DNA of 54,033 bases, counting the filler, from Jimgerdemannia flammicorona (lineage: Eukaryota), in assembly GCA_003990765.1 (NCBI GenBank). It is 3 parts of 3 records of this genome, joined end to end, with 100 filler letters (N's around TTAATTAATTAA, not from the genome) between each part and the next. Parts side by side here need not be neighbours in the genome. Positions count along the whole stretch, not along the records: positions 1 to 17,946 come from RBNJ01002353.1; 2 more parts are not named here. The stretch is one strand, 5' to 3'. Shown here piece by piece: positions 1-53,821 of the stretch. Position 1 is the stretch's first letter, and each line of letters begins with the position of its first letter. A program made the translations under genes and the position numbers. Under the pieces are notes generated by a model. It did no database searches. It worked only from the letters and a program-made list of their open reading frames with translations, and was not told the origin of the DNA.

Positions 1-330
1 GAATGCTTAGAAATCCTTTCTTGGTGCCGAGCATTAACTAGTACTTATTTAGTTAGTCACTGAATGTCCTGGAAACTTGTAGAACTTTATTTGTCATCAT
101 TTGTCATCTTTGCCAAGAACTTTCCTCTTGGCATTTTCCTTTGATTTCTCAGATCCTTCCGGATCCTTCTTTCAGATCTTGTATAAATAACCCCTTTGTT
201 CTTATGAATAAAGCTCAGAATATTTTCTCCCAGAAATCCTTTGAGAACACTTGAATCCTTAGTATCTCTTTGAGCTACTTAGGACCACCAGAATTAGTCG
301 CTTCCTCATTTAGAAACTAGAACCATTACA
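1..330 (+). repeat. Partial LTR (3' part) of an additional LTR-retrotransposon family, truncated by the contig start
   Basis: TATAAATAACCCC at 182, AATAAA at 207 and a ...CCATTACA end at 330 match the promoter/polyA layout of the other LTRs. No PBS follows, so it is a 3' or solo LTR. Confidence 0.5.
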
Positions 331-1140
331 AAGTCCTCTTATTAGAGTAAAGACTTTATCTTTATCTTTAATATAATTTACTGATATATTTAGAAAATTC
401 ACCTGATTTATAAGATTGTCTATATAATTGGTATATTTATAGATCATCTTCTTGGACTTTATTTAGAGATTGAATAATTGCATTTTCAGGTAGAATTTAT
501 TAGATATAGATACTTGCTAATAATAATTATAAAGAATCTCTCATACTTTATTCACTATAGATATATTAATCATATATTTCATTTGAGACTTTGTAAGTAT
601 AAATGTGATTTCTATTAATGTCTTACAATTTTTTGCTATATTATAGTTATTTATTTACATTTATGACTTAGTATACTCTGTCAAACTATACTTCTTTAGG
701 AGATTGTTCATATAGTATATATATCTAAATACATATATTAAAGACTGGAATCATCCTTTTGATCATATTTATACTTATTACAAAGACTATAACTATTATT
801 ATACTTATTCTAAAGATACTTATATCTATGATAGTATTTGTATTTAATATATTATTTAAGCTTGATACTCTTATATTCATATTTTCTAATATCTTAGTAT
901 TGTAACAGTGATCCCAGAATGATGATATTAGTACAAGAGACAGTCTTTCCTTTCAAGCCACGATTGGAGTACAAGAAGATCATATGATATATGAGATGAG
1001 CAATAATGATCAACTGTGAGTCATTGTGACTACAGTACAAGCATTCTGAAGAATATAAAAGAAGGATCAAGGAACCACAGTAGCAGCAACCAACAAGAAC
1101 CACCAATCCAAAAATAGCTCAAAGACTTACCATAAATGAA

Positions 1141-1945
1141 ATGCCTGCTGCCCACCAAACCTCAAGGTCAAGAAATTATCAAGGTATCTCAGTTGAGGAA
1201 AGAATGTTCCAAGACATCAGAAGAGCCATGAGGACCCACTCAAGAAGGACTCCTAGTATCAACCTGGGTACTGCAGATCTCTATTACTTTATTCTCTACT
1301 ACTATGAAATAGAAATAAGGATCACTATTGCTACCAAATGCCTCCAAATGTGGCAAGAGTATGAAATAGGAAACCTCCTCTGCTGGGAGTTCCCACAGAC
1401 CAGCCCTCAAGAGCTACAAGATGTCACTTCCATAGATATACATAAGGCAAGGATAACTAAGAAGATCTATCAGATCTTCAGGCATGCACTATGGTCAATC
1501 CCCAACTTGGAGTATGTTAGAGTCTCAGATTTCAGAGACCTATCATCCCACTATATCAATGTACTAGAAGCCAGGGTGGCTACAGAAGTCCAGTCCACTA
1601 TCACTCTCAATAGTGATGAAGTAGAAGACTTCTGGCACCCCATCCTCCAGAACAACCCAGACCAATTCTTACAAGGATTGATCTCAGTATTCCAAGGCCC
1701 AAGGCATCTGAGTTAGATCTCTCCAAGATCTCACATTTGTCCCCTATTTTGTAGAAGAGAACCTCATAGATTGGAGAGCCCCTGATTTCTCTGCCGAACA
1801 TGATAACATCATCAGTGATGACATCATCCCATGTGACATCAAAGTATGTGAAAATGATAAATTTGCAGACCTCATCTTCTTCAAAGATATTCTGACCTCT
1901 GATGATGAGGATGAAGCCTCCATGGTTCTGAACTTTCTGCTCTAA
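1141..1945 (+). pseudogene. LTR-encoded accessory protein of family A (~267 aa reconstructed; +1 frameshift near 1702)
   Basis: The 191-aa ORF 1141-1716 continues after the frameshift as ...PQDLTFVPYFVEENLIDWRAP...FADLIFF...VLNFLL*. The unshifted frame is seen in the 3' LTR copy. Homologous to the C ORF at 39147-39976. TATAAAA at 1054. Confidence 0.8.
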
Positions 1946-1997
1946 GTTCTTTGTTATACTGAATAATGCCAGCATCAGTATTTTGATGTAACACCAG

Positions 1998-2368
1998 TAG
2001 TGCTCCCAATGAATCGAATCAAATCGAATTTGGCCCAAACTCGATTCAATTCGATCGAATCAAGGGTCCAATTTGATTCGATTTGAATCAAATCAAAGGT
2101 CCAATTCGATTCGAAGTTCAATTCGAACCTTAATTTTCAAAATGTAATAACTCGACGAAAACTCATTCAAATTTAATGTATTTTAGCTAGTTAGATTCAC
2201 CATATTAATGTGATTCTAACAAGCTAAAGGACGTTAGATTTGGATGAGTTTACGCTGAGTTATTGCATTTTGAAAATTAGGGTTTGAATCAGACCCTCAA
2301 TTCAATTCAACTCGTTTAACCTTCAATTTGATTCAATTCAAATTGATTCAACTTGTTTGGAAGCACTA
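1998..2368. mobile_element. 371-bp non-autonomous hAT-like MITE / fold-back element
   Basis: TIRs TAGTGCTCCCAA / TTGGAAGCACTA and an 8-bp TSD (AACACCAG / AATACCAG). Absent from the 3' LTR. GAATC/GATTC subterminal repeats and an internal palindrome. Confidence 0.85.
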
Positions 2369-3101
2369 AATACCAGATAATATCAGCACTGGCATTCTGA
2401 GGTGATGTGAAATTGTTCCAGTACTAGTATTTTGATGTAACACCAGATAATACCAGTACTGGTATTCTGAGGTGATGCAAAATTGTTCCAGCACCAGTAT
2501 TTTGATGTGACACTGAATTATACCAGTATCCTGAACCTGTACAACCATCAGTACTAACCCTGGAACTTAGTAGTTTTAGTTATTGGAATTTTTATTTAGC
2601 TTTATATCTTAGCAACCATTGAATTATATTTTGTATAAATACTCCTCTTATTTCCTCTGAAATAAAGTCAGTCAACTCAGTGCAATATACATACTTCCTT
2701 ATAAGCAATCTAAGAGATAACAAGACAGTTTAAAGATAAGAAGTTTGAGGACTATAAGACCTTGGAAAGGCACTCCAATAAGAACTTACTTATACCAAAC
2801 TTGTAGTTAGTCTAAGAGATATATCTTGAAGAGAATCTGATATATTTGAAGAACTCAATGCCCACTACATGATAATGTATATAATATAGTCAATTCAGTC
2901 TTCTCAGTGCAATATACACAATCTCTTGCAAGCAATCTAAAAGATAATAAGACAGTTTAAAAGATAAGAAGTTTGAGGACTATAAGACCTTGAGAAGGTA
3001 CTCTAATAAGAACTTGCTTATAACAAACTTGAGTTAGTCTAAGAGATACATCTTGAAGAGAATCTGGCATATTTGAAGGACTCAGTGACTACTACATGAC
3101 A

Positions 3102-3119
3102 ACTTGGTACCCATTGACT
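3102..3119 (+). promoter_or_regulatory. A1 primer-binding site (tRNA not identified)
   Basis: ACT-TGGTACCCATTGACT directly after the 5' LTR. Related sequence after the A2 LTR at 19810. Confidence 0.6.
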
Positions 3120-3130
3120 AGTGATTCAAG

Positions 3131-6100
3131 ATGAATCCCTCACTTTTAAGCTAAAAAACGAACAACCCCACAATAACTACCCTGACTATAAGAGTTACCC
3201 CTGCAAGAATTCAAGACAAGATGGAAATATACCCCCCTACATTCTATGAATATACTACTGAAGAGTCAATCCTGACCTTCATTGAAGACTTTGAACAATT
3301 TGCCATCATATGAGCTTTCAATGTAGAGGTACAATTGGCCCTTCTACTAGTCAGCCTCAGAGGACCTGCCAGAGACAAGTTCAATATAGCCACCATTGCT
3401 GGTGCTGATAGAGTCAAACTTGCCAACATGAAGACCTTCCTCAGAACAACATACTATATCGAAGAGATCAAGCAAGCTCTCAAGGATCAACTCAATACTA
3501 TCTGCCAGGGACTTAGTGAAAATCCCAACTCATTCTATACCTGAATCTGCCACCAGATTGTCTTGGTTGGCTATGATGACCATCTCAAGGAACAAAAATA
3601 GCAGATTCAACCTTCTTTAAAGGAGTTCACTCTGAAATTTTCCTAGCAATCCAGTCCACCCCAACTGCACTGACCCTTGATCAGAAAGTGGTCTTTGCAC
3701 AGAGATATTGGACTGCCAGACACTCTGCCAAACACTCAATGGAGAAAATAACTGGCATCAAGATGGAGTCATCAAAGCCAACTAGTATCATATCCACTAC
3801 AGTTGTAAACAAACAACCAACCTTACCTACCCCCAAGACAGCCAAAGCTGACCCAGTGGAAGAACTCACCAAGCAGTTTGCTGAGATGACTGCATACCTT
3901 AGTGATGTTGTTAGAGAAGTCTGAAGTACCAATAGGAGAGCAGTGTAGAGATTTATAGCTGCTATAGAAGAACATAATATCACATACTTCAGATGTAGAG
4001 AAGAAGGCCACTATACAAAGAATTGCATGACCAAAACAAGATGCAAGGCCCAACCAAGCAATGCTAGTAGAACCAGAGAACAAACCAATATAGTAGTCAT
4101 TGAGGAGATTGGTGACACTGATGATGAAGAATACTATAAGAAGCTCGAATTCTACCCTGCTACTGAAGGTACCAGAACCCAGTCCAAGCTCTATGACAAG
4201 AAGAGCAACAGCAAGCCAGTTGGAAGACCAAAGAAGACCCCAGCTGTCACTATTCAAAGCAAGACCCAACCTGAGGAGATTGATCAAGATATAGAGTTAG
4301 ATGAAGCTATCTGCCAAATCATTGAAGGCTCTACTCTAGTCTCAGGAGAAAGTGAAAGCAAGAAGAAACAGAAGGTCAATGCTACTTTTGGACAATTAGC
4401 CAAAGTCTCTATCTTCAGACAGCAGTTGAGAGTAGAACTTACAACTACTGCCAAAAATCAAGAGTACAAGATTGCAGAAGCTTACAATGTACAGGAAGAA
4501 TCCAAGAACTCAGGTAAAGAATCTGAAGATCAGCGCAAGACATCAGCCTATACCTCATGTTAGATTGAAGACTGTATCTTTGATACCATTATTGATACCA
4601 GTGCTGGAGGATGCCTCATAAGCAAAAAGACAATTGACCACCTAGGTTGGGATATTGAAGAGTCCACCAAGATGGTCTATGTTACCGCAGATGGTATATG
4701 AGCTACCCCCCTTGGCAAAATCTGAGAAGTCCCCATCAAGATAGGAGGAGCTACCATCTCAGTAGACATGATTGTTATAAGTACCACCAACTATTATATT
4801 CTCATTGGCAACCAATGGCTTCACAAGGCCAAGGCCATTGTTGACCTCAATGCCCAGAAGATGCAGATCAACTACAGAGGAAGAAAGGTATGAGTCTCTA
4901 TCAATGTCTACAAAGGAGTTCTACTATATATAGAGAAAGGAGATGAAGAAGACCCAGAGATCTTCATACACTTGGTGAATAAGAACAAGAACAAGACACT
5001 CAAGCTCACAGATGAGCAGTGGTATAACAAGATTATCAATGGCTATGCCCCTCAAGGAAGATGCCCCCATGGTACTAGAATGTACTGCTCTGAACACCTG
5101 AATGACTGCTGGTCCTATATCAGTGAAGTCAGGAAAATCTGCTAACAGAAATATGAGCAAGAAGCCACTGAAGCAAAAAGAAAAGCCAAAGAAGATGACC
5201 AGCCCCCAGAGCTTCAGACTGACAGTAACAATAAGGAGGAACAAGAATCAGACATCACTCTCAAGGTTAAGAAGTTTCACCCTAAAGCCAAGATCCCAGA
5301 ATACAAGACCAAAGGAGCCATAGGAATGAACCTTGTCAGCATTCAAGATACTACTCTCGAACCACAAACCACCACCCTACTTGGCACTGGAATTGGAGTC
5401 AAACTGCCAGAGAACTATACCAGAATTATCAAGACCAGGAGCAGTCTGGCCAAAAGCAAAATCTCAGTTGAAGGAGGAGTAATTGACCTTGATTACACTG
5501 GTGAGATCTTCCTTATAGTCAGAAATCACAACTACACCCCCTTAGAAGTCAAGAAGCATGACAGGATTGGCCAGATGCTGATCCATGAAGTCAAGAAGTC
5601 CAAGATCATAAAAGCCATCGAACTCATCAAGACTAAGAGAGAAGAACAAGGCTTTGGATCTACTAGAAGAGGAGCCTATGCTGTCACCAAGATTATTGAA
5701 CTTGAATACAAGAAAGACAAGAACCAGAACAAGCACACATATACTATTGGAGAAAACTTTCCTCTGGAGGAATAACTTCTCAAGATTCTGCATCAAAATG
5801 AAGGAGTACTTGCTACAGACTTCAGAGATATCCACAATCAAGAACCCAAGTACTATCATGAAGTTGATACTGATAATACCAAGCCCATTTACCAGAAAGT
5901 CAGACCCATACCACCTGCCTATAGAGAATGGCTGCAAGCAGAACTCAAGGAAATGGAAGAAGCTGGGATCATCAAGCAAGCTATTAGTCCCTGGGCCACA
6001 CCCATTATCCTTGTCCCAAAGAAAGGAAGCAAGCCTGGAGAGTTTGTGCCAAGACTCTGCATTGACTACAGAAAGCTCAATACCATCATCAAGAAGGATA

Positions 6101-8427
6101 GGCAGCTCTTGCCAAATATTCAAGAAATCCTTACCACTCTTGAAAGCAAAGCCAAATACTACACTACCTTGGATCTGTTCTCAGGCTTCCATCAGATTGG
6201 TCTCACTCAAGATGCCAGTGAGAAATCAGCCTTCATCACACCTGACACTACCTATATCTACCTGCAAATGCCATTTGGAATGTGCAATGCCCCAGCAAGT
6301 TTCCAGCAAATGATGAAGAGAGTCTTCAGCAATAAGATTGGAAAATAGCTCTTTGTCTATATTGATGATGTGATCATCTTCAGCAATACTGCACAGGAAT
6401 ATGTCAATCATATATAGCTAGCCCTCAAGAAGCTCAAGGAGCATGGCCTCTACATCAAGCCCAAGAAATGCAAGTTTGCAGCTCAAGAAATTGCCTACCT
6501 AGGACACCTCATCAACTAGATTGGAATCCACACAGACCCTATGAAGATTGAGGCTGTTTCAGCCTACCTGAGACCCAGAACAACTACAGAAGTCCATGTC
6601 TTCCTTGGACTGGCCAGCTACTACAGAAGGTTCATTAAAGGATACTCCAATATTGTAGCATCTATCTATGAGCTACTGAAGAAGGAAACCAAATTCGAAT
6701 GGACCAAGGAGTGCTAAGAAACCTTCAATAAACTCAAGACCAGGTTGACCCAAGCACCTATTCTCAGAAGACCAGATTGGAACCTAGAATTCATCCTGCA
6801 GACAGATACAAGTGCTATAGGACTTGGAGCAGTCCTAGCTCAGAAAAAAGATGGATATGAATATGTCATCTCCTATGCAAGCCAAGGTACCTGCAGAGCA
6901 GAACAGAACTATAAGTCATACAAGCTTGAATACTTAGCAGTAGTTTGGATAGTAGATAAGTTCCACTACTACCTAGCCAGAAAATACTTCACTATTCAAC
7001 AGACCATTCCACTCTTGCCTGGCTATTCTACACTCTGAACTCTAAAGGAATATATGCCAGATGGATCTACAGGCTATAAGAGTATGACTGTACTATCAAG
7101 CACTGCTCAGGAAAGACCAATACCAACACTGATGCACTTTCAAGGATGCTCCAAAATACTACTATCAAGACTATTCAACATGAATAAGAAGCTATACTAT
7201 AGATTAATCAGCTACCTTGGGCAGTGGAAGATGTCCAACCACCTCAAACCCTGGACAATTACTATCATCAACTGGACTTGAAAACAGTTTGAACTAGACA
7301 ACACTACACTTAGAAAAGAAGGAAAGCTAGTAATACCCGAACACAAGAAGTATCAAGTAATGAAGGATGTACATGAGCAAGGATACTTAGGAGGAACCAA
7401 CACATATGATAAAGCAAGAAGAACCATATGGTGGCCCAAGATGGAAGAAGACCTACACCAATTTGTCAAAGGGTGTGATAAGTGTCAAAAACAGAAACAA
7501 GATCAGCAAGACCAGACATCTGGGTCATCAAGAATTGAGCCTATCCCCTTCTACCACATTGCAATGGATATCATTGGACCACTACCAGTAACACTATCAG
7601 GAAACTACTATATTATAGTTATTGTAGACCTCTTCACCAAATGGATAGAGGCAGAAGCATTACAAGAAGCCAATGCTCTCTCTATAGCCGACTTCCTATA
7701 CTGAGAAATTATCTGCTACTACAAGACACCAAAGCAAATCACAACAGACTGCAGAATGGAATTTGTCAATAGATTTTATGAGATAATGTATCAGAAATAC
7801 AAGATTCAGCACATCAAGACCACCATGTACCATCCTCAAGAAAATGGACAGACAGAGAGAACCAACAAAACTCTCAAGAACATCCTAGTGAAGATCTCAG
7901 AGATATATGAGAATTGGGATAACTATCTCCCAACTACTCTCTCTGTCCTATGAGATATACAGTCACAGAGTACACACTTTACTCCAAGAGAGCTGCTCTT
8001 CAGAGAAGAAGATTCTGATGGAACCTCAGCTACAAATCTAGACTTAACTTGGAGACAGGTTGATGCAGAAATCCAGAGACTACACCAAATCAGGAAGAAG
8101 GCTGAAGATTACATTACCAAGTTATAAGTACTGATAAGAAAGAATGCAGAAAAGAATCACAAGGCCCTAGAACCCATCCAAATCAGAGAAAAGGTTCTAC
8201 TGTATTGAAATATGGTAGAAGTCTTATGGTCATGAAAACTGGAGCCCAAATGGAAAGGACTCTTCTACATGCAAGATATCAAGAGAACTACCTTCTGGCT
8301 TAGAAAAATCTCAGGGACCATACTGCCTACCATAGTATATAGGAACAGACTCAAGAAGTACTACAAATCTATATAAGAGAAGCAAAATGTGATAACCACC
8401 CATGAGGTTCTAGTCCGCAAATTATAA
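3131..8427 (+). pseudogene. A1 gag-pol: capsid, CCHC knuckle, aspartic protease, dUTPase, RT, RNase H, integrase; many stops and frameshifts
   Basis: (Y)FRCREEGHYTKNC ~3985; IIDTSAGG ~4588; SPWATPIILVPKK, RLCIDYRKLN and YIDD at 5980-6370; FILQTDTS..GLGAVL ~6790; WWPKM..CDKCQ, IAMDIIGPLP and YHPQENGQTER at 7370-7860; KLEPKWKG ~8236. Confidence 0.93.
5260..5670 (+). pseudogene. dUTPase domain between protease and RT (A1)
   Basis: TGIGVKLPENY..IKTRSSLAKSKISVEGGVIDLDYTGEI...DRIGQ...REEQGFGST, matching trimeric dUTPase motifs. Confidence 0.9.
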
Positions 8428-8739
8428 CAGTATGTCCCATGACCAGCAAGCTATCTGTCTGGACTATTCTCTAAGAGATATGGCACTGGCAACTACTCAT
8501 CCATAAGACTTTCGAAGTCAGAGAAGTTTGAACCATCAACTGATTGGTCAAGATCAGAATCAGGCCCTTGCTCTATATGAAGGGAGCAACCCTTCACCAT
8601 CATGCCAAAATATAAAAGAAAGATGCTAGCCCATAAATACTTCTTTTCAACCCCTTGCTAGAGATTATGGGATCAGCAAATTTTTCAGGACTGGACCAAT
8701 GAATAAGGATACTCAGGAGATCCTTATTCAGGAGGAAGA

Positions 8740-10558
8740 TGTAACAGTGACCCCAGAATGATGACATTAGTATAGGAGACAGCCTTTTCTTACAAGCCAC
8801 CAGATCAGAGCACAAGAAGATCATATGGCATATGAGATAAACAATGATGACCAACTGTGAGTCATTGTGACCACAGTACAAGTATCCTGAAGAATATAAA
8901 AGAAGGATCAAGGAACTACAGTAGCAGTAACAACAAGAACTACCAATCCCAAAATAGCTCAAAGACTTACCACAAATGAAATGCCTGCTGCCCACCAAAC
9001 CTCAAGGTCAAGAGATCACCAAGGCATCTCAGTTGAGGAAAGAATATTCCAAGACATCAGAAGAGCTATGAGGACCTGCTCAAGAAGGACTCCTAGTATT
9101 AACCTGGGTACTGCAGATCCCTATTACTTTATCCTCTACTACTGTGAAATGGAAACAAGGATTACTATTGCTACCAAATACCTCCAAATATGGCAGGAGT
9201 ATGAAATAGGAAACCTTCTCTGCTGGGAGTTTCCACAGGCCAGCTCTCAAGAGCTACAAGATACCACTCCCATAGATATATGCAAGGTAAGGATAGCTAA
9301 GAAGATCCATCAGATCTTCAGGCATACACCATGGTCAATCCCCAACTTGAAGTATGTTAGAGTCTCAGATTTCAAAGATCTGTCATCTCACTATATCAAT
9401 GCACTAGAAGCCAGGGTGGCTACAGAAGCCCAGTCCACTATCACCCTTACAGTGATGAAGTAGAAGACTTCTAGCACTCCATCCTCTAGGACAACCCAGA
9501 CCAATTTCTGCAAGGATTGATCTCAGTATTCTAAGGCCCAAGCATCCAAGTTAGATCTCCCCAAGACCCCACATTTGTTCCCTATTTTGTAGAAGAGAAC
9601 CTCATAGATTGGAGAGCCCCCAATTTCTCTGCTGAACATGATGACATCATCAGTGATGACATCATCCTGTGCAACATAAGCACACAAAAATGATGAATTC
9701 ATAGACCTCATCTCCTTTGAAGAAATCCTGACCTCTGATGACAAGAATGAAGCCCCCATGGTTCTGAACTTTCTGCTTTAAGTTCTTTGTTATACTGAAT
9801 AATGCCAGCATCAGTATTTTGATGTAATACTGGATAATGCCAGCACTGGCATTCTGAGGTGATGTGAAATTGTTCCAGCACTGGTATTTTGATGTAATAC
9901 TGGATAATGCCAGCACTGGCATTCTGAGGTGATGCAAAATTATTCCAGCACTGTCATTTTGATGTAATACTGAATTATACCAGTATTCTGAACCTGTACA
10001 ACCATCAGTACCAACCCTGGAACTTAGTAGTTTTAGTTATCAGAATTTATATTTAGCTTTATATCTTAGCAACCATTGAATTATATTTTGTATAAATAAC
10101 CCTCTTATTTCCTCTAAAATAAAGACAGTCAACTTAATGTAATATACATACTTTCTTGCAAGCAATCTAAGAGATAATAAGACAGTTTAAAGATAAGAAG
10201 TTTGAGGACTATAAGACCTTGGGAAGGCACTCTAATAAGAACTTGCTTATAACAAACTTGTAGTTAGTCTAAGAGATATACCTTGAAGAGAATCTGATGT
10301 ATTTGAAGGACTCAATGCCCACTACATGACAATGTATATAATATAGTCAATTCAGTCTTCTCAGTGCAATATATACAATCTCTTATAAGCAATCTAAAAG
10401 ATAACAAGACAGTTTAAAAGATAAGAAGTTTGAGGACTATAAGACCTTGGAAAGGCACTCCAATAAGAACTTGCTTATAACAAACTTGAGTTAGTCTAAG
10501 AGATACACCTTGAAGAGAATCTGACATATTTGAAAGACTCAGCAATTACTATATAACA
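8740..10558 (+). repeat. A1 3' LTR
   Basis: Starts TGTAACAGTG after the purine tract AGGAGGAAGA and ends ...TATAACA followed by the TSD GTAT. Confidence 0.93.
8981..9781 (+). pseudogene. Second copy of the family-A LTR accessory gene
   Basis: ORF 8981-9463 (MPAAHQTSRSR...) with a frameshifted continuation to ...VLNFLL*. Confidence 0.8.
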
Positions 10559-11065
10559 GTATATAGTAGCATACAGTCTTTGTACATATATAGTCTTAGA
10601 GAGATATTTCTTAGCTACTAACCAAGGATTATAACCTTTGTTATAAATATAAAGTGAAACAAGAAGAGAAATAAGAGTGTTGTTTATTGATCTGAGTTTT
10701 ACATATTATAATTATAAGTGATGTAGTCACATATAAGTCACATATAAGTCACAAATTATCAAGATGCAGAATAACAAGAATTTCAACATATGTCATGCAA
10801 TCTCCTGCTCTCAAGCCTACTATCAATGGGTTATAAATGTTTCAATAATGGCTAGCACTTCTTTAATTGCGCTTGTACCTAGCACTTTGTAAAAAAATTT
10901 CTTTTGTTTTGTCGGTGCTTTTGCTCTTGATAATTGGCAAGGTAAAAAAATTTATCAAACATCCGAGGTTGTACTATGCCTCCGAACTCCCTATCTCCAC
11001 GGTAACATACCCATGCCTACACTGGTCAATGAGTACGCGGATATGCATGGCTCTTACAACATTCA

Positions 11066-11631
11066 TCACCGATCCCCTTTACTTTCTTCAAGTCCCGAAT
11101 AAGCTGGACGATCAAATAATGTTGGTCCAAATTTTAGTTCGAATGGCTGAATGAGAAATTCGTCTTTGGTAAGAAGTAACGAACTGCCGCCGATTTTCCG
11201 CTCTTTGAAGATTTGAATATGTGCATCTTTGGGCCGCAATGTCTTGAGGTTGGCTCTCAGGAATGCGACTACGTCATCGTCGCTCCATTCATGCACGACA
11301 TTCTCTTGGAGATAATCAGGTATGATAGGATTTCCAGGTCGCACGGCCGAGATTGACACCTTTGAAATGACGACAGAGAGGTTAAGAACAGGAATACAGA
11401 ACCCCTTGAAAGAACGAATATAGATAATAAAACAAAAATATGCACCCCTTTGCCTTTGACCTTGGACTTGTTATGCTGTGGGCCAGATTGCTAATCTTCT
11501 TTCTCATTAACTTCTGTGGTCACCTAGAAAAACAAGACAGAGAACGGGGAAGGCAAGAATAACAACAAGAAGTAAAAGATATCGCTGTTGGCAGAATTAT
11601 CGCGGAGAAAAATTATCACCGAAAACGACAT
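11066..11631 (-). pseudogene. SAM-like domain gene fragment, three putative exons, disrupted
   Basis: VHEWSDDDVVAFLRANL...HIQIFKERKIGGSSLLLTKDEFLIQPFELKFGP fits a sterile-alpha-motif-like pattern. Putative GT-AG introns at ~11360-11444 and ~11524-11619. In-frame TAG in exon 2; a frameshift precedes LIVQLIRDLKK. Confidence 0.5.
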
Positions 11632-11702
11632 GGCCTTTTGGAGTGTGAAAGGGTGACGGTTGCACGCCATTTCGGGTAAATTTGTGACGTCACATTCGAG
11701 CA

Positions 11703-11835
11703 ATTCCACGGAGGGAGATGGCCGCTGTTTTACAGTGCGCACAAAGGCCCTAGGAAATGTCTATCATGATGGACTTGGTGTTGCCCTTGCGCACACCGCC
11801 CTAGGAAATGTCGGTCATGATGGACTTGGTGTTGT
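11703..11835 (+). repeat. Rearranged partial duplicate of coding sequence 13279-13393 of the neighbouring gene
   Basis: GGGAGATGGCCGC, GCCCTAGGAAATGT..CATGATGGACTTGGTGTTG (two copies) and CCCTTGCGCACA all match the CDS. Confidence 0.85.
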
Positions 11836-12478: not shown

Positions 12479-12486
12479 TATAAATA
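12479..12486 (+). promoter_or_regulatory. Candidate TATA box of the TPR-Sel1-MYND gene
   Basis: TATAAATA ~45 nt upstream of ATG 12531. AATAAA at 15384 downstream of the stop codon. Confidence 0.5.
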
Positions 12487-12530
12487 CCTCTTAGTCATCG
12501 AAACCGTTCCATCTCTCCTTCACATTCGCC

Positions 12531-18263: not shown

Positions 18264-19809
18264 TGTAACAGTGACCTCAGAATGATAACATCAGCAGAGG
18301 AGATAGTCTTTTCTTATACCACTAGATCAGAGTATGAGAAGATCATATGGTATGACTCATCAGGGCTACAAGATGAGCAATGATGACTAACCATGAGTCA
18401 TTGTGACCACAAGACAGATATCTCAAGGAATATAAAAGAAGAATCAAGAAACCACAATAGCAGCAATCTAAACAATATATACAAGAATAATTTTAAAGAC
18501 TTACCATAAATAAAATGCCTGCCACTCACCAAACCTCAAGGTCTAGAAACCATCAAGGCCCCTCAGTCCAGGATAGAATGTTCTAAGACATCAGAAGAGC
18601 TATAGACCTATACAAGAAGGGCTCCTAGTATTAATCTGAGTACTAGTGACCTCTATTATTATATTCTCTACTGCTGTAAAATGGAAACAAGGATCACCAT
18701 CACTACTAAATACCTCTGGATGTAGCAGGAGTATGAAATAGGAAACCTTTTCTACCAGGAGTTCCCTCAGACCAGTCTCCAGGAGATTCAAGATATCACT
18801 CCTATAGATATATATGAAATAAGAACAGTAAAGAAGATTCATCAGATTTTCTGGCATATACTATAATTGATCCCCAACTTGGAGTATACTAGAATCTCAG
18901 ACTTCAAGGAACTGTCAGCTCACTGCACCAATGCACTAGAGACCATGGTGGCCACAGAGGCTCAGTCTACTATTACCCTCAATAGTGATGAAGTAGAAGA
19001 CTTCTGGTATCCCATCCTCCAGGACAACCCAGATCAATTCCTACAACAATTGATCTCAGTATTCTAAGACCTCAGTATCCAGGTTAGACCTCCCCAAGAC
19101 TCCACATTTGTTTCTTATTTTGTTGAAAAGAATGTCATAGATTGGAGAGCCCTAGACCTCCTTGTTCTCCTCACTGCTAAATATGATAATGTCATCAATG
19201 ATGACATTATCCTGTGTGATATATGTGAGATGTACAAAGTATACAAAACAGACAAAATGTTTGCAGACTCATCTCCTTCAAAGACATCCTGTCTCCAATC
19301 TCTGGTCTTGATAGTGATGAAGATGAAGCCCCCATAGTCCTGAACTTTCTGCTCTAAGTTCTTGGTAATATCAGATTCTACCAGCATCCTTTTTCTGTAT
19401 AACTATTATTCTTCTAATATTCTTTTTCTGTACCACTGAAATTCTACTATCATCCTAAACTTATACAACCATTTGTACAGACAACTATAGTTTTCTGTAT
19501 TCTAGTATTTTATTTGGTTATTGAAATTTATATTTAGCTTTATAACTTAGCAACCATTGAATTATATTTTATATAAATACCTCTCTTATTTCCTTTGAAA
19601 TAAAGTTAGTCAAGTTCACTTACCCTCAATTTCATACAAGCAATCTAAGAGATAACAAAACAGTTTAAAGATAAGAAGTTTGAGGACTATAAGATCTTGG
19701 GAAGGCACTTCAATAAGAACTTACTTATAATAAACTTGAGGTTAGTCTAAGAGATATATCTTAGAGAGAATCTGATATATTTGAAAGACTCAGTAACCAC
19801 TATATGACA
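18264..19809 (+). repeat. A2 5' LTR
   Basis: TGTAACAGTG...TATGACA followed by the PBS ACTTGGTATC. Single U5 end. Confidence 0.9.
18515..19357 (+). pseudogene. Third copy of the family-A accessory gene
   Basis: MPATHQTSRSR...IPNLEYTRISDFKELS...WYPILQDNPDQFLQQL...APIVLNFLL*, with internal stops. Confidence 0.78.
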
Positions 19810-21036
19810 ACTTGGTATCTATTGACTGGTGATTCAAGATGAATTCCTCACTTTCAAGCTGAAAAATGAACAACTACCACAATAACTACTCTGACTACAA
19901 GAGTCATCTCTGTAAGAATTCAAGACAAGATAGAAATGTATCCCTCTACATTCTATGGATATACTACTGAAGAGTCAATCCTGATCTTTATTGAAGACTT
20001 TGAACAATTTGCTGCCATATGAGCCCTCAATGTGGATGCACAATTGGCCCTTCTACCAGTCAGCCTCAGAGGACCTGCCAGAGACAAGTTCAATGCAGCC
20101 ACTATTGCTGATACTAGTGCAGCCAGACTTGCCAACATAAAGACCTTTCTCAGAACTATATACTACACTAAAGAGATCAAGTAAGCTCTCAAGGATCAAC
20201 TCAACACTATCTGTCAGAGACTTAGTAAAGACTCCAACTTATTCTATACCCAAATCTGCTATCAGATTGTTTTGGCTAATTATAATGATTACCTCAAGGA
20301 TCAAATAGCAGATTCAACCTTTCTGAAAGGAGTTCACCCTGAAATTGCCCTTACAATCTGATCTATCTCAGTTGCTCTGACTCTTGACCAGAAAGTGGTC
20401 TTTATACAGAAATATTAGACTGTCAGACACCTCACTGAACACTCAATAGAGAAAATAACTGGCATCAAGATAGAGCCATCAAAGCCATCTAGTATCATAT
20501 CTGCTACAGTTGTAAACAAACAACCATCTCCACCTATTTCCAAGATAGCCAAAGCTGATTCAGTGGAGGAACTCACCAAGTAGTTTGCTGAGATGACTAT
20601 ATATCTTAGTGATATTATTAGAGAAGTCTAAAGGGCCAACAGGAGACCAGTACAGAGATTTGCAGTTGCTATAGAAGAATGCAATATTATATACTTCAGA
20701 TGCAGAGAAGAAGACCACTATACAAAGAGTTGCATGATCAAAACAAGATGCAAAGCACAATCAAGCAATGCTACCAGAACTAGAGAATAAACTAATGTAG
20801 TAGTCATCAAGGAGATTGGTGATACTGATGATGAAGAATACTACAAAGAGTCTGAATTCTATTCTATTACTGAAGGTACCAGAATTCAGTCCAAGCCCTA
20901 TGACAAAAAGGACAACAGCAAGCCAGTTGGAAGACCAAAGAAGACCCCAGCTATTACTATTCAAAATAAGACCCAATCTGAGGAGATTGATCAAGATATA
21001 GAGTTAGATAAAGCTGACTGCCAAATCATTGAAGAC

Positions 21037-23068
21037 TGTAAGAGAGTTGCTTTTTTAGGGTAACCATTATGTAGTTCTGGAAGGGTTTTCTGGAGGTTCT
21101 GGATATTCTGGAAGACTGTTTTCTTATGGTCAAGATCAATATCATATGGAGTACGTCCTCTATGCTTATTGATTTCAAGATCGGATTGAGGTCTCAACCA
21201 AAGTCCTTTTCCGGACTAGTTCTAGGTGTTCAGGATTTTTTCCATATTTCAGGAAGTTCAAGAAACTAAGACCAGCTTAGTTGAATTGGCATATCGCTGC
21301 AGACAATACCCAATTAGGAAATTTCGTGATGGGATTAGGAGTGAGACCTAACAGGGAACAGATTTACTTAAGAGTGGTTTATGGGTTATGGAATAGGTTT
21401 ATTTGCTATTCATGATATTGCTATACTAGGAGTAGTTGTGTGAAGGGTATTGTGGGGAAGTATTCAGGAATGTTCTTGTGTGTTTGAGTCTGAGATTCTG
21501 AGGTCTAGGGGAGGGGGTATTTATACTAGTGAGGGGCAATCTGGACTATGTTGAATATGGATATAGCACTAAGTACCTTGCTGAGTCAGAATGCAGTCAT
21601 ATAGTACAAGTGTGATCTGACATGTCAAGAGATCGTCTGACTGCTGAGTCAGTTCACAGTCATGTCGTACAAAGCTAATCTAACTATACTATGACTGCTA
21701 GGCTATTTATGGATTTAGGCGCTATCTGGGTAGTCTTCGATGACATCACTATCAATGACATCATCTCTGATAAAGTAGTCATCTAGAAAGAGTGGTTCGT
21801 GGATTACTTCTCCTTATTCGCTGAGGTAGTAATACATTGGGACTTTGTCTCCATCCCACAGGATAGCATCGTCTGTCTTGTAGGCTGGATAAGGTGTTGG
21901 TGGGTGAAGGATGGGTATATTGTCTTCGCTTTTGTCGGATTCACTGTCTGCGTACCTTCTATAGGTTATAGCACTATGAGTTGCAGGATTGTAGTAAGCT
22001 GGTGGCTGTGGTTCATGTTACTCGTACTCAGGTAGTGGAGTGGTTGGTTCAATCTCGAGGGTTGTCTGGAGGTACAGGTTGTATTCTCCGGTCTCCTCAT
22101 TGTAGTTGAAGTAGTCAGGGGTGAATATGGGTTGGTATTCGTACCAGTGGTCATTGTTCCAATAAGTCTCGTATGCAGTTATGAACTATTGCAAGTTCAT
22201 TGGCAAGTTTGGCGGTGTGATCAGGGTTGGCAGAGATCCTTGGCTAGAGGTCATGTCGGCATCAGAGGGATCATTGTCTTCTGCTTCATCTTCGTCGAAG
22301 TGGATTATATCGTAGACATCCTTCATGGCGTATCCGACTTGAGACATTTGCAGGATATGGTCATCAGGGTGCGGGAATGTTCTGTCTGTGGTCTGGATAT
22401 ATTCGAGGTACTTGTGGTTGAGTTCTTGTATCATGTCATCAATTTGGCCATAGGACAGGGTAGCAACCATTTCGCTAGTAGTGACTCGGAGGCAGGGAAT
22501 AAAGATGTTGTACTCATAGAAGAGTTCTCGATGTTTGCGGGCGATGAGCTTCTGGTGTTGAGACATCTGGGTAATGTCTGTATCATGGTGGTGTTTGACC
22601 ATGTCTTCTAGGAGGTGGCCAATCTGGTAGTAGCTTGAGATTTGTCTGATTCAGTGGGCCTTGCTAAGCATGTTCAGGGTGTTTCATCAGACTTCCATGA
22701 AGTAGAGGGGTGCCAGGCTATGGATATTCATAAGGGGCAGGGGGGGTGTGGCTTGGTTGACAATGGCATTCCAAATGTCAGCATGGATATGGTTGTAGAT
22801 CTCAGTGGTCATATTTGTGTGTTTGGAAGTTGTGGTTGTTGTTGGTTTTGGTTCTCTGATTCGACATGTCTTAGTGCTCAGTATATATGTATTTGGTCCT
22901 GATTGGTAAGATTCCGTTTGTGTAAATCTTGTGTTCCGTGACTTCGTATTGACTCAGCTTTGTGCGCTGTGACTTCGGTTTGACTAAGCTTCATGATCAA
23001 GCAGGTGATTTCCAGATTTGTTCAGAGGTCGCATGTAATTTTGGTGGCTTGGAGGTTGTGCACTTACA
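21037..23068 (-). repeat. B 3' LTR
   Basis: TGTAAG...CTTACA termini, near-identical to 29578-31585, adjacent to the PPT. Confidence 0.94.
21715..22812 (-). pseudogene. Family-B LTR accessory gene, 3' LTR copy (365 aa reconstructed)
   Basis: Same 1098-nt frame as 30233-31330. It has sense codons where the other copy has three of its stops. Confidence 0.78.
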
Positions 23069-29577: not shown

Positions 29578-31585
29578 TGTAAGAGGGTTGCTTTTTTAGG
29601 GTAATCATTATGTAGTTCTGGAAGGGTTTTCTGGAGGTTCTGGATATTCTGGAAGACCATTTTCTTATAGTCAAGATCAATATCATATGGAGTACGTCCT
29701 CTACGCTTATTGATTTCAAGATCAGGTTGATGTCTCAACCAAAGTCCTTTTCCGGACTAGTTCTAGGTATTCAGGATTTTTTCCGTATTTCAGGAAGTTC
29801 AAGAAACTAAGACCAGCTTAGTTGAATTGGCATATTGCTGCAGACAATATCCAATTAGGAAATTTCATGATGGGATTAGGAGTGGGACCTAACAGGGAAC
29901 AGATTTACTTAAGAGTGGTTTATGGGTTATGGAATAGGTTTATTTGCTATTCATGATATTGCTATACTAGGAGTAGTTGTGTAAAGGGATATTGTGGGGA
30001 AGTATTCAGGAATGTTCTTGTGTGTTTGAGTCTGGTATTTATACTAGTGAGGGGCTATCTGGACTATGCTGAATATGGATGTAGCACTAAGTGTCTTGCT
30101 GAGTTGGAATACAGTCACATAGTACAAGTGTGATCTGACATGTCAAGAGATCATCTGACTGCTAAGTCAGTTCACAGTCATGTCATACAAAGCTAATCTA
30201 ACTATACTATAACTGCTAGGCTATTTATAGATTTAGGCGCTGTCTGGGTAGTCTTCAATGACATTACTATCAATGACATCATCTCTGATAAAGTAGTCAT
30301 CTAGGAAGAGTGGTTCGTAGATTACTTCTCCTTGTTCGCTGAGGTAGTAATACATTGGGACTTCGTCTCCATCCTACAGGATAGCATCGTCTGTCTCGTA
30401 GGCTAGATAAGGTGTTGGTGGGCGAAGAATGGGTGTATTGTCTTCACTTTTGTCAGATTCACTGTCTGCATACCTTCTATAGGTTACAGCACTATGAGTT
30501 GCAGGATTGTAGTAAGCAGGCAGCTATGGTTCATGTCGCTCATACTCAGGTGGTGGAGTGGTTGGTTCAATCTCGAGGGTTGTCTGGAGGTACAGGTTGT
30601 GTTCTCCAGTCTCCTCATTATAGTTGAAGTAGTCAGGGGTGAATGTGGGTTGGTATTTGTGCCAGTGGTCATTGTTTCAATAAGTCTCATATGCAGTTAT
30701 GAACTGTTGCAAGTTCATCAGCAAGTTTGGTGGTGTGATCAGGGTTGGCAGAGATCCTTGGCTAGAGGTCATATCAGCATCAGAGGGATTATTGTCTTCT
30801 GCTTCATCTTCATCGAAGTGGATTATATCGTAGATGTCCTTCATGGCGTATCTGACTTGAGGCATTTGCAGGATATGGTCATCAGGGTGCAGGAAGGTTC
30901 TGTCTGTGGTCTGGACATATTCGAGGTACTTGTGGTTGAGTTCTTGTATCATATCATCGATTTGGCCATAGGACAGGGTAGTAACCATTTCGCTGGTAGT
31001 GACTCGGAGGCGGGGAATAAAGGTGTTGTACTCATAGAAGAGTTCTCGATGTTTGTGGGCGATGAGCTTCTGGTGTTGAGACATCTGGGTAATGTCTGTA
31101 TTATGGTGGTGTTCAACCATGTCTTCCAGGAGGCGGCCAATCTGGTAGTAGCTTGAGATTTGTCCAATTCGGTGGGCCTCGCTAAGCATGTTCAGGGCAT
31201 TCCATCAGGCTTCCACGAAGTAGAGGGGTGCCAGGCTATGGATATTCATAAGGGGCAGGGGGGGTGTGGCTCGGTTGACAATGGCATTCCAAATGTCAGT
31301 GCGGATACGGTTGTAAATCTCAGTGGTCATGTTTGTGTGTTTGGAAGTTGTGGTTGTGTTTGTTTTGGTTCTCTGATTCGATGCGTCTTGGTGCTCAGTA
31401 TATATGTATTTGGTCCTGATTGGTAAGATTCTGTTTGTGTAAATCTTGTGTTCCATGACTTTGTATTGACTCAGCTTTATACACTGTGACTTCGGTTTGA
31501 CTCAGCTTCGTGATCAAGCAGGTGATTTCCAGATTTGTTCAGAGGTCGCATGTAATTTTGATGGCTTGGAGGTTGTGTGCTTACA
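29578..31585 (-). repeat. B 5' LTR
   Basis: Paired with 21037-23068. The PBS abuts its inner end. Confidence 0.94.
30233..31330 (-). pseudogene. Family-B LTR accessory gene, 5' LTR copy (365 aa reconstructed)
   Basis: ORFs 31205-31456 and 30677-31189 are in one frame separated by a TGA. The frame continues through point stops to TAA at 30233: MTTEIYNRIRTDIW...YYQIGRLL...IAHKHRELF..FIPRL, then an acidic/Pro-rich tail. Confidence 0.8.
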
Positions 31586-35991: not shown

Positions 35992-36091
35992 NNNNNNNNN
36001 NNNNNNNNNNNNNNNNNNNNNNNNNNNNNNNNNNNTTAATTAATTAANNNNNNNNNNNNNNNNNNNNNNNNNNNNNNNNNNNNNNNNNNNN
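35992..36091. other. Artificial contig spacer
   Basis: N44-TTAATTAATTAA-N44. Confidence 0.95.
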
Positions 36092-38356: not shown

Positions 38357-39135
38357 TGTAATAACTCTCACTTCTACCCCACTCTTATCCTTTGGATAAT
38401 TAGGGAAGTGGACTATTACTTATGGACTTAGTACACAATGTGTACCAAGAAGCCTTCAGTTTGAGGAAGTGCTTGCTTATAAGTAGTTGTAGCAGCAGTG
38501 CCTTCTGTTTCAAAGGTCTTTCTCTGGTTTGCCTTCTATTTCAAAGGTCTTGTTCTTTGCTGTGCACAGACTGAATCCGTCTTGGAATTCAGGTTCAATT
38601 GGTTTACTAAAGTCTTTGGGGATTTATATACCAGTCTCAGTTCTGGCAGAAGTTAGCTAGGCTTCTGGAGTTTAGTCAGAAACACTAGAGTCACTTAGAT
38701 GTCATTACTAAGACTCAGGGGAATGTGTGTGTGGAGGGGGACTTGATTCTTATATCAAGGACTGAACTAAAACTGCTTTATTTCGGATGGAAACTGGGGG
38801 GTATTTATACAAGTTGGTCTGCAATTTCTGACTAAGTATGAGTGACTAATTTGGTAACTATAATGAGGTTTATGATTGCAACCTTTGTCAGATGGTTTTT
38901 GGTAAAGAATATCTTTATGATTAGGATCTCAATTACTAGGCAATGATCAGCAGCTATGGCAATAGTTACTGTAGTATCGATTGTTGGAGATAAGCTGGAT
39001 ATTATTTTCCACATCATTTCACATCATTTATCACTTGCTATTCATATGTCATGCTCGATTGTTTGATGACATCATTGCCAGGTCACATGATCATTCGTGA
39101 TCGCTCATCATGTCCCATCTGTTTGTTATATTATA
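38357..39135 (-). repeat. C 3' LTR
   Basis: Matches 46690-47468. Minus-strand TATAAATACCCCC and AATAAA. Confidence 0.93.
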
Positions 39136-39146
39136 TCTTTCTCTCC

Positions 39147-39976
39147 TTAGAAATCAACATCCTTGTTGATTGAGAAATTGAGAACCAGGGGAGAGAAAGG
39201 TGGGAAATCCTGCTCAGGGTTGTTGGCATCTTCTTCAGTAGTAGAGCGGGTGGTGGTTGCTGATGGCTCACTGTCCAGGATGGAGAAGTCAATGAGGTCT
39301 GCAAATAGTTCTTGCATTGGGATAGGTGCTAGTGTAGGGGTTCTCCATCTAATATGGTTGGGGCCATCCAAGTAGGGTTCTTGGTCCTCATGCCTGGGAA
39401 TATCCATTTGGATGAGCAGTCCTTCAAAGAGATCAGAGAGGCCTTGGAGCCATTGATTAGGGTTGTTATTCAGAAGGGGACTCCAGTAGAGTTTGCAGTC
39501 AGTGGACTTGAGGGTGATCCAGGAGTTGGCTTTTTGGGCTACCTTGATCTCTAGTTCATCAACCTCAAAGAAGGAGAGGTTCTGAAAGTCCTTTAGTTAG
39601 ACATAGTTGAGGTTGGGGATTGCAAAGGATGCATGGCATATGATTCGGTGGACCTTCTTGGCAAGTCTTTGCTCGCTCCCATCCAGGTAGATCCAATTAG
39701 AGACTTGGTCCATGGGCAGGTCCTTTGCCTGTTGGAGGAGTTGATGGCCAATCTTATATTCATGCCAAATCTCTAGGTGGCTGGTGGTAAGGTAGGCTCT
39801 TTCGATGACTTCATGGCAGTTGAGGACATAGTGTCCTAGGTCCTGACTGGAGAGGTTAAGGGCCTCTGAGCAGTAGTTCCTTCCTTGGATAGCAACCTGG
39901 ATGTGTCCAAAGAGGCAGTCAACCTGGCTTGGGAGGGGCTGACTATAGCAGGCAGTTTGCAGCAGATGGCAGGTAT
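39147..39976 (-). pseudogene. Family-C accessory gene between integrase and PPT (~276 aa reconstructed)
   Basis: LEIWHEYKIGHQLL...LAKKVHRIICHASFAIPNLNYV*LKDFQNLS...WSPLLNNNPNQWLQGL...FADLIDF...PLVLNF. Start decayed to ATA, one frameshift near 39957, TATAAATA at 40041-40048. The stop codon overlaps the PPT. Confidence 0.85.
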
Positions 39977-40624
39977 TCTTACCTTGTCTTTTCTTTATGA
40001 GGAGAGAGAGATGAGAGTTACAGAGTATTCTTGCCTAGGGTATTTATACTTATTCACCCATCTGATGTAACCTTCCTTTGGTCATGCTTTCTGACAAAAT
40101 GTATGACCTGTTGCTGTAAGTAGCACATGTGCTGGTCACATGAGAAAATCCTGATTTCAAAGATCTTATCACTCATAGTTGTGGTTACACAGGGTTAACA
40201 GGTCTTGGTCCACTTTTTTTTTGTCTGGTTGGTGCATTTGTGAGGACTGGCAATCCTTGTCTAGGGCAAGGGCTCCCATTATCATGGCTGGGGGTTCAAA
40301 CCTCTCAGAAATAGACTTTCTTATAATCCAAGGCAATTTCTAGTAACAATATCTATCATGTGGATGGACTTAGACTGGTTTCAACATTGTCAGCTTTCCT
40401 AAGTTCCATATGAAGTATCTGTCATCATCCAGTGGAGATGACACAGATAGTGTGAAATAGAGTTATTCAAATGTGTTTTGCTATACTGTACTAGATTGTT
40501 CTTTTGCTCAGGTATCTTCTTGTTAGTTATCCATAGTATTCCTTTTTCTGCAATGTTTGGTATTATATGTTTCCAGATAAATATGTAGTATCCTTCTGCT
40601 CACTATGCACTCCAATACTTAGAG

Positions 40625-46689: not shown

Positions 46690-47468
46690 TGTAATAACTC
46701 TCACTTCTATCCCTCTCTTATCTTTTGGATAATTAGGGAAGTGGACTATTACTTAGGGACTTAGTACACAATGTGTATCAAGAAGTCTTCAGTTTGAGGA
46801 AGTGCTCACTTATAAGTAGTTGTAGTGGCAGTGCCTTCTGTTTCAAAGGTCTTTCTCTAGTTTGCCTTCTATTTCAAAGGTCTTGTTCTTTGCTGTGCAC
46901 AGACTGAATTTACCTTGGAATTCAGGTTCAATTGGTTTACTTAAGTCTTTGGGGATTTATATACTGGTCTCAGTTCTGGCAGAAGTTAGCTAGGCTTCTG
47001 GAGTTTAGTCAGAAACACTAGAGTCACTTAGATGTCATTACTAAGACTCAGAGGAATGTGTGTGTGGAGGGGGGACTTGATTCTTATATCAAGAACTGAA
47101 CTAAAACTACTTTATTTCAGATAGAAACTGGGGGGTATTTATACAAGTTGGTCTGCAATTTCTGATTAAGTATGAGTCACTAATTTGGTAACTATAATGA
47201 GGTTTATGATCACAACCTTTGTCAGGTGGTTTTTGGTAAAGAATATCTTTGTGATCAGGACCTCAATTACTAGCAATGATCAGCAGCTGTGGCAACAGTT
47301 GCTGTGGTGCAGATTGTTGAGGATAAGCTGGATATTATTTTCTATGTCATTTTGCATCATTTATCACTTACTATTTATATGTCATACTCAATCATTTGAT
47401 GACATCATTGACAGGTCACATGATCATTTGTGATCACTCATTGTGTCCTATCTGTTCGTTCTATTACA
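46690..47468 (-). repeat. C 5' LTR
   Basis: TGTAAT...ATTACA, adjacent to the PBS and followed by the TSD. Confidence 0.93.
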
Positions 47469-53786: not shown

Positions 53787-53821
53787 TAGTGCATCGCAAC
53801 CCGAGCCGACCCGTGTACATA

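Follow-up and report, generated by a model that had tools for sequence, protein, structure and literature searches.

An uncharacterized accessory gene family in or beside the long terminal repeats of dUTPase-encoding Ty3/Gypsy elements of Jimgerdemannia flammicorona, with a possible role in trans-regulation

The window analyzed here, the whole stretch of 54,033 nucleotides (nt) of DNA from Jimgerdemannia flammicorona (assembly GCA_003990765.1; three parts of three records joined end to end, positions 1 to 17,946 coming from RBNJ01002353.1), is a eukaryotic transposon nest of Ty3/Gypsy long terminal repeat (LTR) elements, and every family in it encodes a dUTPase. In addition to gag-pol, these elements carry an accessory open reading frame (ORF) that is, with high confidence, a real, selected, element-borne gene. 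Its protein family has no Pfam, PDB, or fold match. We propose that the product is an element-borne trans-acting accessory regulator, most likely an activator; as an explanation of all the observations this is the best that we can offer, and we regard it as plausible if not quite probable.

An accessory ORF shared by divergent Ty3/Gypsy families

The window holds elements of three kinds, A (A1 and A2), B, and C. Their reverse transcriptases (RTs) are only 37 to 47% identical, and we therefore treat A, B, and C as separate families within a single broad group. The accessory ORF is present in all of the window's LTRs of A and B (5/5) as well as in element C; it lies outside gag-pol, whose domains end upstream, and it runs in the sense of the element in every copy. 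The copy in the 5′ LTR of A1 (1141..1945, plus strand) begins with an ATG at 1141 and ends with a TAA at 1943-1945; it has no in-frame stop and a single frameshift, near 1700-1712. The copy in the 3′ LTR of A1 (8981..9781, plus strand) has a frameshift and stops, and that in the LTR of A2 (18515..19357, plus strand) has three in-frame stops in the core and a frameshift in the tail. The ORF of C (39147..39976, minus strand) lies between the chromodomain and the 3′ LTR; ATA stands in the place of its start codon, a frameshift lies close to the N terminus, and a single in-frame TAA occurs at 39599-39597. A previous interpretation of the window, made without database searches (the sequence-only reading), had given these same positions for A and C, and they are correct. 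Its description of all copies as element-sense ORFs with acidic tails was likewise borne out. The B LTRs hold a longer ORF than it had seen, one that keeps the same frame for 365 codons; the 5′ LTR copy (30236..31330, minus strand) contains 4 stops, and the 3′ LTR copy (21718..22812, minus strand) contains 6 stops and no frameshift.

The A and C proteins are homologous, as had been claimed. Their Smith-Waterman score was 283, compared with 32.5 ± 5.1 for shuffled sequences (z 49), and none of the 500 shuffles scored as high. The alignment spans approximately residue 57 of the A frame through the end of the core; the acidic tails alone align weakly (score 38, z 2.0, 24/500 shuffles as high). 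At the nucleotide level A and C cannot be aligned (blastn, E 1e-20), yet the protein alignment covers about 250 codons. A profile of the A/C family, built solely from relatives outside the window and run on 1280 six-frame pieces of it, recovered all three A LTR copies and both pieces of C with E values from 1e-82 to 6e-4, the two frames of the A1 5′ LTR copy at 4.6e-82 and 2.6e-18.

The next-best matches among the 1280 pieces were the two B LTR ORFs, at E values of 0.036 and 0.21. Read through with X at the stops, the B ORFs scored 9.3 to 10.4 bits, reached by 1/2000 and 0/2000 shuffles, and P0013, an intact B-type N terminus, scored 16.4 bits (0/2000 shuffles) and was colinear with the profile over residues 7 to 126. 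P0014, the C-terminal 247 residues of a B-type protein, had no similarity to the same profile (-0.1 bits, 349/2000 shuffles). An hhalign comparison of A/C with B gave P 0.0019 and a probability of 14.6% over 83 columns, and pairwise A/C-B scores were marginal (z 1.3 to 4.4). To judge from these alignments, the B ORF is probably a distant relative of A/C in its first ~120 residues only. The proposal that B shares a distant core thus stands for that part, at modest significance, but the relationship is weaker than claimed and the C-terminal part is unrelated. A likeness between the motif YFIRDDVID in the B tail and YFVEENVID in A was seen by eye only; the C-terminal part of B has no profile similarity, and we make no claim from it.

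Relatives, intact versions among them, were found on 11 metagenome protein records, derived from short ENA or JGI metagenome contigs of 619 to 4848 nt and either unnamed or annotated as "hypothetical protein." The A-type relatives are P0001 (271 amino acids [aa]), P0002 and P0011 (247 aa), and P0003; the C-type relatives are P0005, P0012, and the ORF of L001 (291 codons); further types are represented by P0006 (342 aa) and by P0008 and P0010, which are shorter and more distant. Intact relatives are 41 to 49% identical between types. When 1.84 billion representative proteins were searched with a profile, only 7 matched at E≤0.001, one of which, P0009, is a repeat-driven chance match. Pattern matches yielded one locus among metagenome contigs (from 52 matches) and no relatives among viral contigs (0 from 37) or genome contigs (0 from 25), and none of 463 candidate proteins longer than 368 aa was a relative.

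Purifying selection and decay

The divergence between copies shows purifying selection on the accessory gene. Selection had been claimed in the sequence-only reading, and a dN/dS near 1 would speak against it; between C and L001 the proportions of synonymous and nonsynonymous differences were 0.659 (pS) and 0.259 (pN), which gives an omega of 0.20 by the method of Nei and Gojobori (NG86). As neutral controls, paired LTR copies of one element gave NG86 omegas of 0.52 and 0.31. Because NG86 omega is biased low by an excess of transitions, a point that counts against any such value taken alone, neutral change was simulated as a reference: with 94% transitions, 200 runs had a median omega of 0.48 and a minimum of 0.269, and the observed 0.20 lies below them all. 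Counts of differences by codon position are independent of the transition bias. The counts at the three positions were 79/58/112 between C and L001 (p 1.3e-4) and 93/61/111 between A1 and L001 (p 7e-4), compared with flat distributions in the LTR-pair controls (17/16/24 and 27/17/31). The comparison of A1 with A2 is indecisive and was dropped as evidence of selection, since its omega of 0.27 to 0.28 is not clearly below the neutral 0.31 to 0.52 under transition bias.

The copies in the window are inactivated mainly by transitions of the C-to-T and G-to-A type. Among the differences between paired LTRs, 329/350 (three pairs) are transitions, an excess that explains the many stop codons in the window copies. 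Contigs from four public runs, among them copy variants and junctions internal to LTRs, likewise differ from the window chiefly by transitions and more often have C/G where the window has T/A. The decay fits cytosine deamination or a process like repeat-induced point mutation (RIP).

Exchange or descent

Protein-level conservation across the families had also been taken to make exchange between elements probable, and this was not shown. Measured on the same decayed copies, RT identity is 40.2% for A-C, 37.4% for A-B, and 46.8% for B-C, and integrase identity is 30%, 36%, and 50%, respectively. The gag proteins of B and C are 41.6% identical over 255 aa, and those of A-C and A-B did not align. 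The accessory ORFs of A and C are 34.5% identical over 165 aa, a conservation similar to that of RT, and A-B and B-C gave no tblastx match. Gag-pol is closest between B and C; for the accessory ORF, and also for the LTR core promoter, A and C are the closest pair. Under a clock, the likeness of the A and C accessory genes would conflict with the gag-pol pattern; however, with three lineages and no root, a fast-changing or partly replaced B gene explains the pattern equally well.

Promoter, polypurine tract, and position of the unit

A TATAAAA box (1054..1060, plus strand) lies 87 nt upstream of the accessory ATG in the 5′ LTR of A1, and the same box recurs in the other A LTRs at 8895 and 18431, ~85 and ~87 nt before the start. 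In C, a TATAAAT box (40042..40048, minus strand) is located 71 nt upstream of the accessory start, the L001 ORF has a TATA box 80 nt ahead of its start, and B has TATAAAG at about -150. Just 5′ of the ATG, A (1120-1137) and L001 (355-370) have in common a 16-nt motif, AAAGACTTACCA(C/T)AAA, with a z of 5.6 for the copy in the A1 3′ LTR (2/1000 shuffles) and of 3.7 for the copy in the 5′ LTR (9/1000); the upstream regions of A and L001 are otherwise unalignable. The reverse complement of this motif presumably resembles the 5′ splice-site consensus.

The position of the ORF relative to the polypurine tract differs between the families. In C and L001, the accessory stop codon adjoins the polypurine tract, which is followed by the TGTAATA start of the LTR. 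In A and B, the polypurine tract is upstream of the ORF, which starts 241 (A) and 256 (B) nt inside the LTR. The coding sequence is thus inside the unique 3′ (U3) region in A and B and not in C. As part of U3, the A/B unit is copied to both LTRs and would persist on solo LTRs. The A LTR (1819 nt) consists of an accessory unit of ~1040 nt plus a part as large as the C LTR (779 nt). Along it, TATA occurs at LTR positions 156, 1352, 1596, and 1811, and the sole AATAAA at 1379; the 27-nt spacing between the TATA at 1352 and this AATAAA equals that between TATA at 327 and AATAAA at 354 in the C LTR, and A and C have an LTR core block in common (z 5.4, 0/300 shuffles). The AATAAA of A is downstream of the ORF, and an RNA begun at the upstream TATA could therefore terminate inside that LTR.

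These arrangements would be explained most simply by a relocation of the polypurine tract that brought the unit into U3 or took it out, and a single shift of the tract in the C lineage would suffice to explain the positions. A relic of an A-like LTR start upstream of the C ORF was sought and rejected (local alignment z -0.4, 717/1000 shuffles as high).

Properties of the accessory protein

The proteins have isoelectric points of 4.5 to 4.9, with a net charge that is positive at the N terminus (+8 over the first 60 residues in the A type) and declines along the chain to between -6 and -8 per 30 tail residues. The core motifs W.EYEI, AKK.HQ.F.H, IPNL.YV, LE..VA, and NPDQ.LQGL..F.GP are conserved, as are the tail motifs I.W[RE].P, DLI.F (twice in P0006), and P.VLNF. 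In 4/4 proteins examined, Kyte-Doolittle hydropathy over 19 residues reached a maximum of 0.64 to 1.05, so that no transmembrane helix is present. No signal peptide and no membrane anchor were found. The protein therefore lacks the features of an Env-like ORF3, in agreement with the earlier view that it is not Env.

Two structure models were made. The first had a mean predicted local distance difference test (pLDDT) score of 40.3 and was unusable. The second had a mean pLDDT of 53.9 and a predicted template-modeling score (pTM) of 0.48, with a helical core and an unstructured tail below 40; it is confident only over approximately residues 20 to 35 and 100 to 160, with pLDDT values of 70 to 89 over the latter. 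According to this model, the ~150-residue core is probably mostly helical and the acidic tail disordered.

Comparisons with known proteins agree with the description of the family as uncharacterized. Pfam gave no family at E≤10 beyond scattered chance matches for 14/14 members, PDB sequences gave no match (best E 0.41), and Foldseek with the second model gave none at E≤0.001 (best 0.53). In the ESM Atlas, the best feature score was 0.83 and the best template-modeling (TM) score 0.33, both at chance level. A lead toward the TRFH (telomere repeat factor homology) domain was set aside as unsupported: it came from a 39-residue match to P0009 (E 5.5e-6) that was aided by six repeats, hhalign gave P 0.04 and a probability of 1.3%, and TRF2 TRFH chains appeared only at Foldseek E values of 1.0 to 2.2. 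P0009 itself, a TRF-like protein, has 1052 residues, a Myb-like C-terminal end, and many tandem 30-residue units, and it had matched the NPDQFLQGL motif.

Proposed function and alternative explanations

In the mechanism that we favor, the accessory gene would form its own transcription unit, in sense orientation, at the 3′ end of dUTPase-encoding Ty3/Gypsy elements, and the A and C types would encode proteins of ~270 to 340 residues. The unit would be situated just upstream of the polypurine tract in the C type and, with the tract upstream of it, within U3 in A and B; in A, the accessory transcript could end at the AATAAA of the LTR. The protein would act in trans, in the nucleus, to regulate the expression of its own element, and an activator would feed back on the accessory and LTR promoters with a logic like that of foamy-virus Tas. 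A nuclear trans-regulator is suggested by four features taken together: the separate 3′ unit with its TATA box, an acidic and soluble product whose core is helical, a probably disordered acidic tail in which bulky hydrophobic motifs are conserved, and conservation like that of RT. The parts of this proposal differ in strength. For a separate promoter-driven mRNA we consider the case evenly balanced, and transcriptional activation as the specific function is a tentative suggestion.

Several observations weigh against the proposed regulator, in addition to the transition bias and the indecisive comparison of A1 with A2 discussed above. All six window copies are pseudogenes. The TATA boxes are consensus matches only. 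Among 8 runs, no RNA run containing the stretch was found. The basic N terminus is clear only in the A type, the corresponding charge being +3 in L001 and +1 in P0006. Both structure models are poor overall, and no fold or family match backs any function. The likeness of the tail motifs to acidic activation motifs is putative.

The sequence-only reading had named a transactivator and an anti-silencing factor as candidate roles, and roles other than activation have to be considered for a selected protein. The accessory protein might be a counter-defense factor, analogous to VANC of VANDAL transposons or to viral silencing suppressors, that shields the element from host silencing by RNA interference (RNAi), heterochromatin, cytosine methylation, or a RIP-like process. 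The copies are heavily hit by transitions, in the window LTR pairs and likewise in the run contigs, and this load indicates that the host attacks the elements in a way that a counter-factor could target; moreover, the gene is lineage restricted, fast evolving, and orphan, as genes in an arms race often are. A relation to VANC gained no Pfam, PDB-sequence, or fold match, although it is not known whether VANC is present in those libraries. We consider a counter-defense role unlikely. By analogy to retroviral Rev or Rex, or to CERV, the protein might instead handle RNA, acting in the export, stability, or packaging of genomic RNA. CERV offers a precedent, since the available part of its description presents an orphan nuclear protein that exports Ty3/Gypsy genomic RNA (PMC10309623), and the arginine-rich N terminus of the A type and the hydrophobic, leucine-rich VLNF(L/S) and DLI.F motifs near the C terminus would suit such a role. 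However, the arginine-rich N terminus is not kept in the C-type or P0006-type proteins, no splice sites requiring export control were identified, and Pfam detected no RNA-binding domain, so that RNA handling also appears improbable.

Two further explanations, that the ORF has no role of its own in the element or that it is not a protein gene, are both disfavored. A host gene fragment could have been transduced once and carried along as a passenger, and transduced additional ORFs (aORFs) are indeed known in plant LTR retrotransposons, as reported in the accessible part of one survey (PMC7264820). Against this stand its presence in at least three families with RTs 37 to 47% identical, its constant 3′ position and sense orientation, the purifying selection, and the lack of any host-like homologue in the 1.84 billion representative proteins and among the 463 candidates longer than 368 aa; we judge a passenger to be very improbable. 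Alternatively, the conserved feature could be cis-acting signals of U3 or the 3′ untranslated region, with the ORFs incidental. The region does lie in or beside U3, the home of cis elements, and the copies in the window are all broken. A conservation of signals is nevertheless hard to reconcile with sequences that align as proteins and not as nucleotides, with the excess of third-position differences, or with intact frames of 247 to 342 codons in several divergent relatives, and we give this explanation very little weight. A trans-acting regulator remains the reading that we prefer.

Comparison with known systems

Extra ORFs 3′ of pol are known in LTR retrotransposons and are mostly without known function, according to the part of a survey available to us (PMC7264820). 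The accessible portion of work on bdelloid rotifers describes ORF3 types that are common to different types of retroelements, in elements that also encode a dUTPase (PMC5408684), and a survey of fungal and plant chromoviruses, likewise available in part, draws an "add. ORF with unknown function" (PMC2864245). The window ORF resembles these aORFs in being an additional sense-oriented frame at the 3′ end of Ty3/Gypsy elements and in recurring in many copies across several families. It differs from them in having no sequence, Pfam, or fold relation to the Env-like, GDSL lipase, or DEDDy exonuclease types, in being embedded in U3 of the LTR in two families, and in having its own TATA box.

Two other orphan proteins invite comparison. 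CERV, encoded by Cer1 of Caenorhabditis elegans, is described in the available part of its report as an orphan nuclear accessory protein of 517 aa that is needed for the export of genomic RNA, is made from a five-exon spliced mRNA with exons in common with gag, and contains a G-protein-like domain (PMC10309623). Both CERV and the window protein are orphan, lineage-restricted accessory proteins of Ty3/Gypsy elements, and the role of CERV is, as far as that part of the report describes it, regulatory; the window ORF differs in being separate, 3′ of pol, and without a G-protein-like domain. The rice elements Retrosat2, RIRE3, and RIRE8 carry an ORF0 upstream of gag-pol (PMC3485330). As far as the accessible part of that article goes, these elements and ours both combine long LTRs with an additional orphan ORF in which divergence outpaces that of pol; they differ in that ORF0 belongs to plant elements and precedes gag-pol, whereas the window ORF is in the LTR or 3′ of pol.

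Retroviruses provide parallels in layout. The Tas (Bel1) protein of foamy viruses has ~300 residues and an acidic C-terminal part and is encoded 3′ of pol and env under a separate internal promoter. Its size, 3′ place, acidic tail, and, putatively, separate promoter are shared with the window gene, and the analogy concerns working logic only: the window family has no Pfam match in 14/14 members and no PDB match, and its host is not a vertebrate. The genes for Sag of mouse mammary tumor virus and Nef of human immunodeficiency virus lie in or overlap the U3 of the 3′ LTR; Sag is a type II membrane glycoprotein, and Nef is myristoylated. As with these genes, the A and B coding sequences are in U3 and are duplicated with the LTR, but the window protein has no hydrophobic segment and no similarity to either.

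Searches of open-access full texts turned up no account of the protein, nor of any protein-coding gene within the LTR of a fungal element. We hypothesize that the U3 unit, comprising promoter, ORF, and shared polyadenylation signal, is self-contained, enters or leaves the LTR through relocation of the polypurine tract, and may be exchanged among Gypsy lineages along with the LTR core promoter, and that it encodes a new family of retroelement regulators without a known fold; this is a speculative extension of the data, and we hold it with some doubt. If it is true, every LTR, including solo LTRs, is a potential source of a family-wide trans-regulator. Should the unit's own promoter be active, solo LTRs would not be inert, which would change models of LTR load, element regulation, and host silencing. 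Few extra ORFs of LTR retrotransposons have a function, and plants and animals account for most of the known ones. The orphan protein described here has persisted in families whose RTs are only 37 to 47% identical, and it offers a testable case of a retroelement gaining regulatory complexity like that of a retrovirus. Overall, the earlier interpretation of a shared, uncharacterized, selected, non-Env family holds up, with B a weaker member than supposed and exchange not shown.

Host elements and other features of the window

Self-blastn of the window revealed three LTR pairs and one further LTR. Element A1 (plus strand) has a 5′ LTR at 901..3101, with TG...CA ends and 89 to 92% identity to its 3′ LTR at 8740..10558, which is preceded by the polypurine tract AGGAGGAAGA; the termini and primer-binding site (PBS) were mapped, and the target-site duplication (TSD) is GTAT (4 bp). 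The 5′ LTR of A2 (18264..19810, plus strand) was recognized by self-blastn and its termini. The internal part of A2 consists of 19811-21040 and 31681-35834, interrupted by the inserted element B, and no A2 3′ LTR was recognizable. Element B is on the minus strand, with a 5′ LTR at 29578..31585 that is 92.7% identical to its 3′ LTR at 21037..23068, the polypurine tract AGAAGGGGAGAG before the latter, mapped termini and PBS, and the TSD GTCTT. Element C, also on the minus strand, has its 3′ LTR at 38357..39135 and its 5′ LTR at 46690..47468 (both by self-blastn) and the TSD CTATT. The LTRs of A, B, and C have TG..CA ends and start with TGTAA, and all three families have the PBS TTGGTA(C/G)C 2 bases past the LTR and a purine tract ahead of the 3′ LTR.

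With Pfam, each of the three families yielded dUTPase, RT, RNase H, and integrase; a protease was likewise detected in B and in C, but not in A. A chromodomain is present in B (E 4.8e-10) and C (E 1.8e-9; 40628-40927) and was found in 0/18 pieces of A tested, the distribution that the sequence-only reading had described. A Cys-rich motif, (W/F)Y.KI..GY.P.G.C, is conserved in A1 (4978-5130), B (27001-27153), and C (44108-44305). It stands before the dUTPase in A and after it in B and C, which indicates that the dUTPase is placed differently in the polyprotein.

The A1 5′ LTR contains a secondary insertion of ~375 bp (1994-2369) that the A1 3′ LTR is without. It has an inverted repeat with 80-nt arms (2121-2200 and 2210-2289, 84%) and terminal inverted-repeat-like arms at 2010-2028 and 2322-2340, and it looks like a small foldback element or one of the miniature inverted-repeat transposable element (MITE) type. 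The A LTR has ~210 nt duplicated in tandem at its 3′ end (2665-2875 and 2892-3102; 87% identical, period 227), and the same duplication is found in the A1 3′ LTR (10126-10332 and 10379-10559); it presumably sits in the unique 5′ (U5) region. Element C, flanked by its TSD, is inserted in further retroelement remains (35834-38356 and 47469-50100), which include another dUTPase (36971-37657, minus strand) and an RT (49439-50071, minus strand).

The end of the window (48000-54033) has a guanine-plus-cytosine (GC) content of 50 to 55% and a GC skew of -0.43 to -0.49, unlike the remaining window; the long ORFs at 51465-53009 and 53010-53789 matched no Pfam family. Between two elements, at 12495-15320 (plus strand), lies an apparent host gene, an intact ORF of 941 residues whose product has TPR repeats, Sel1 repeats (seven), and, at its C terminus, a MYND zinc finger.

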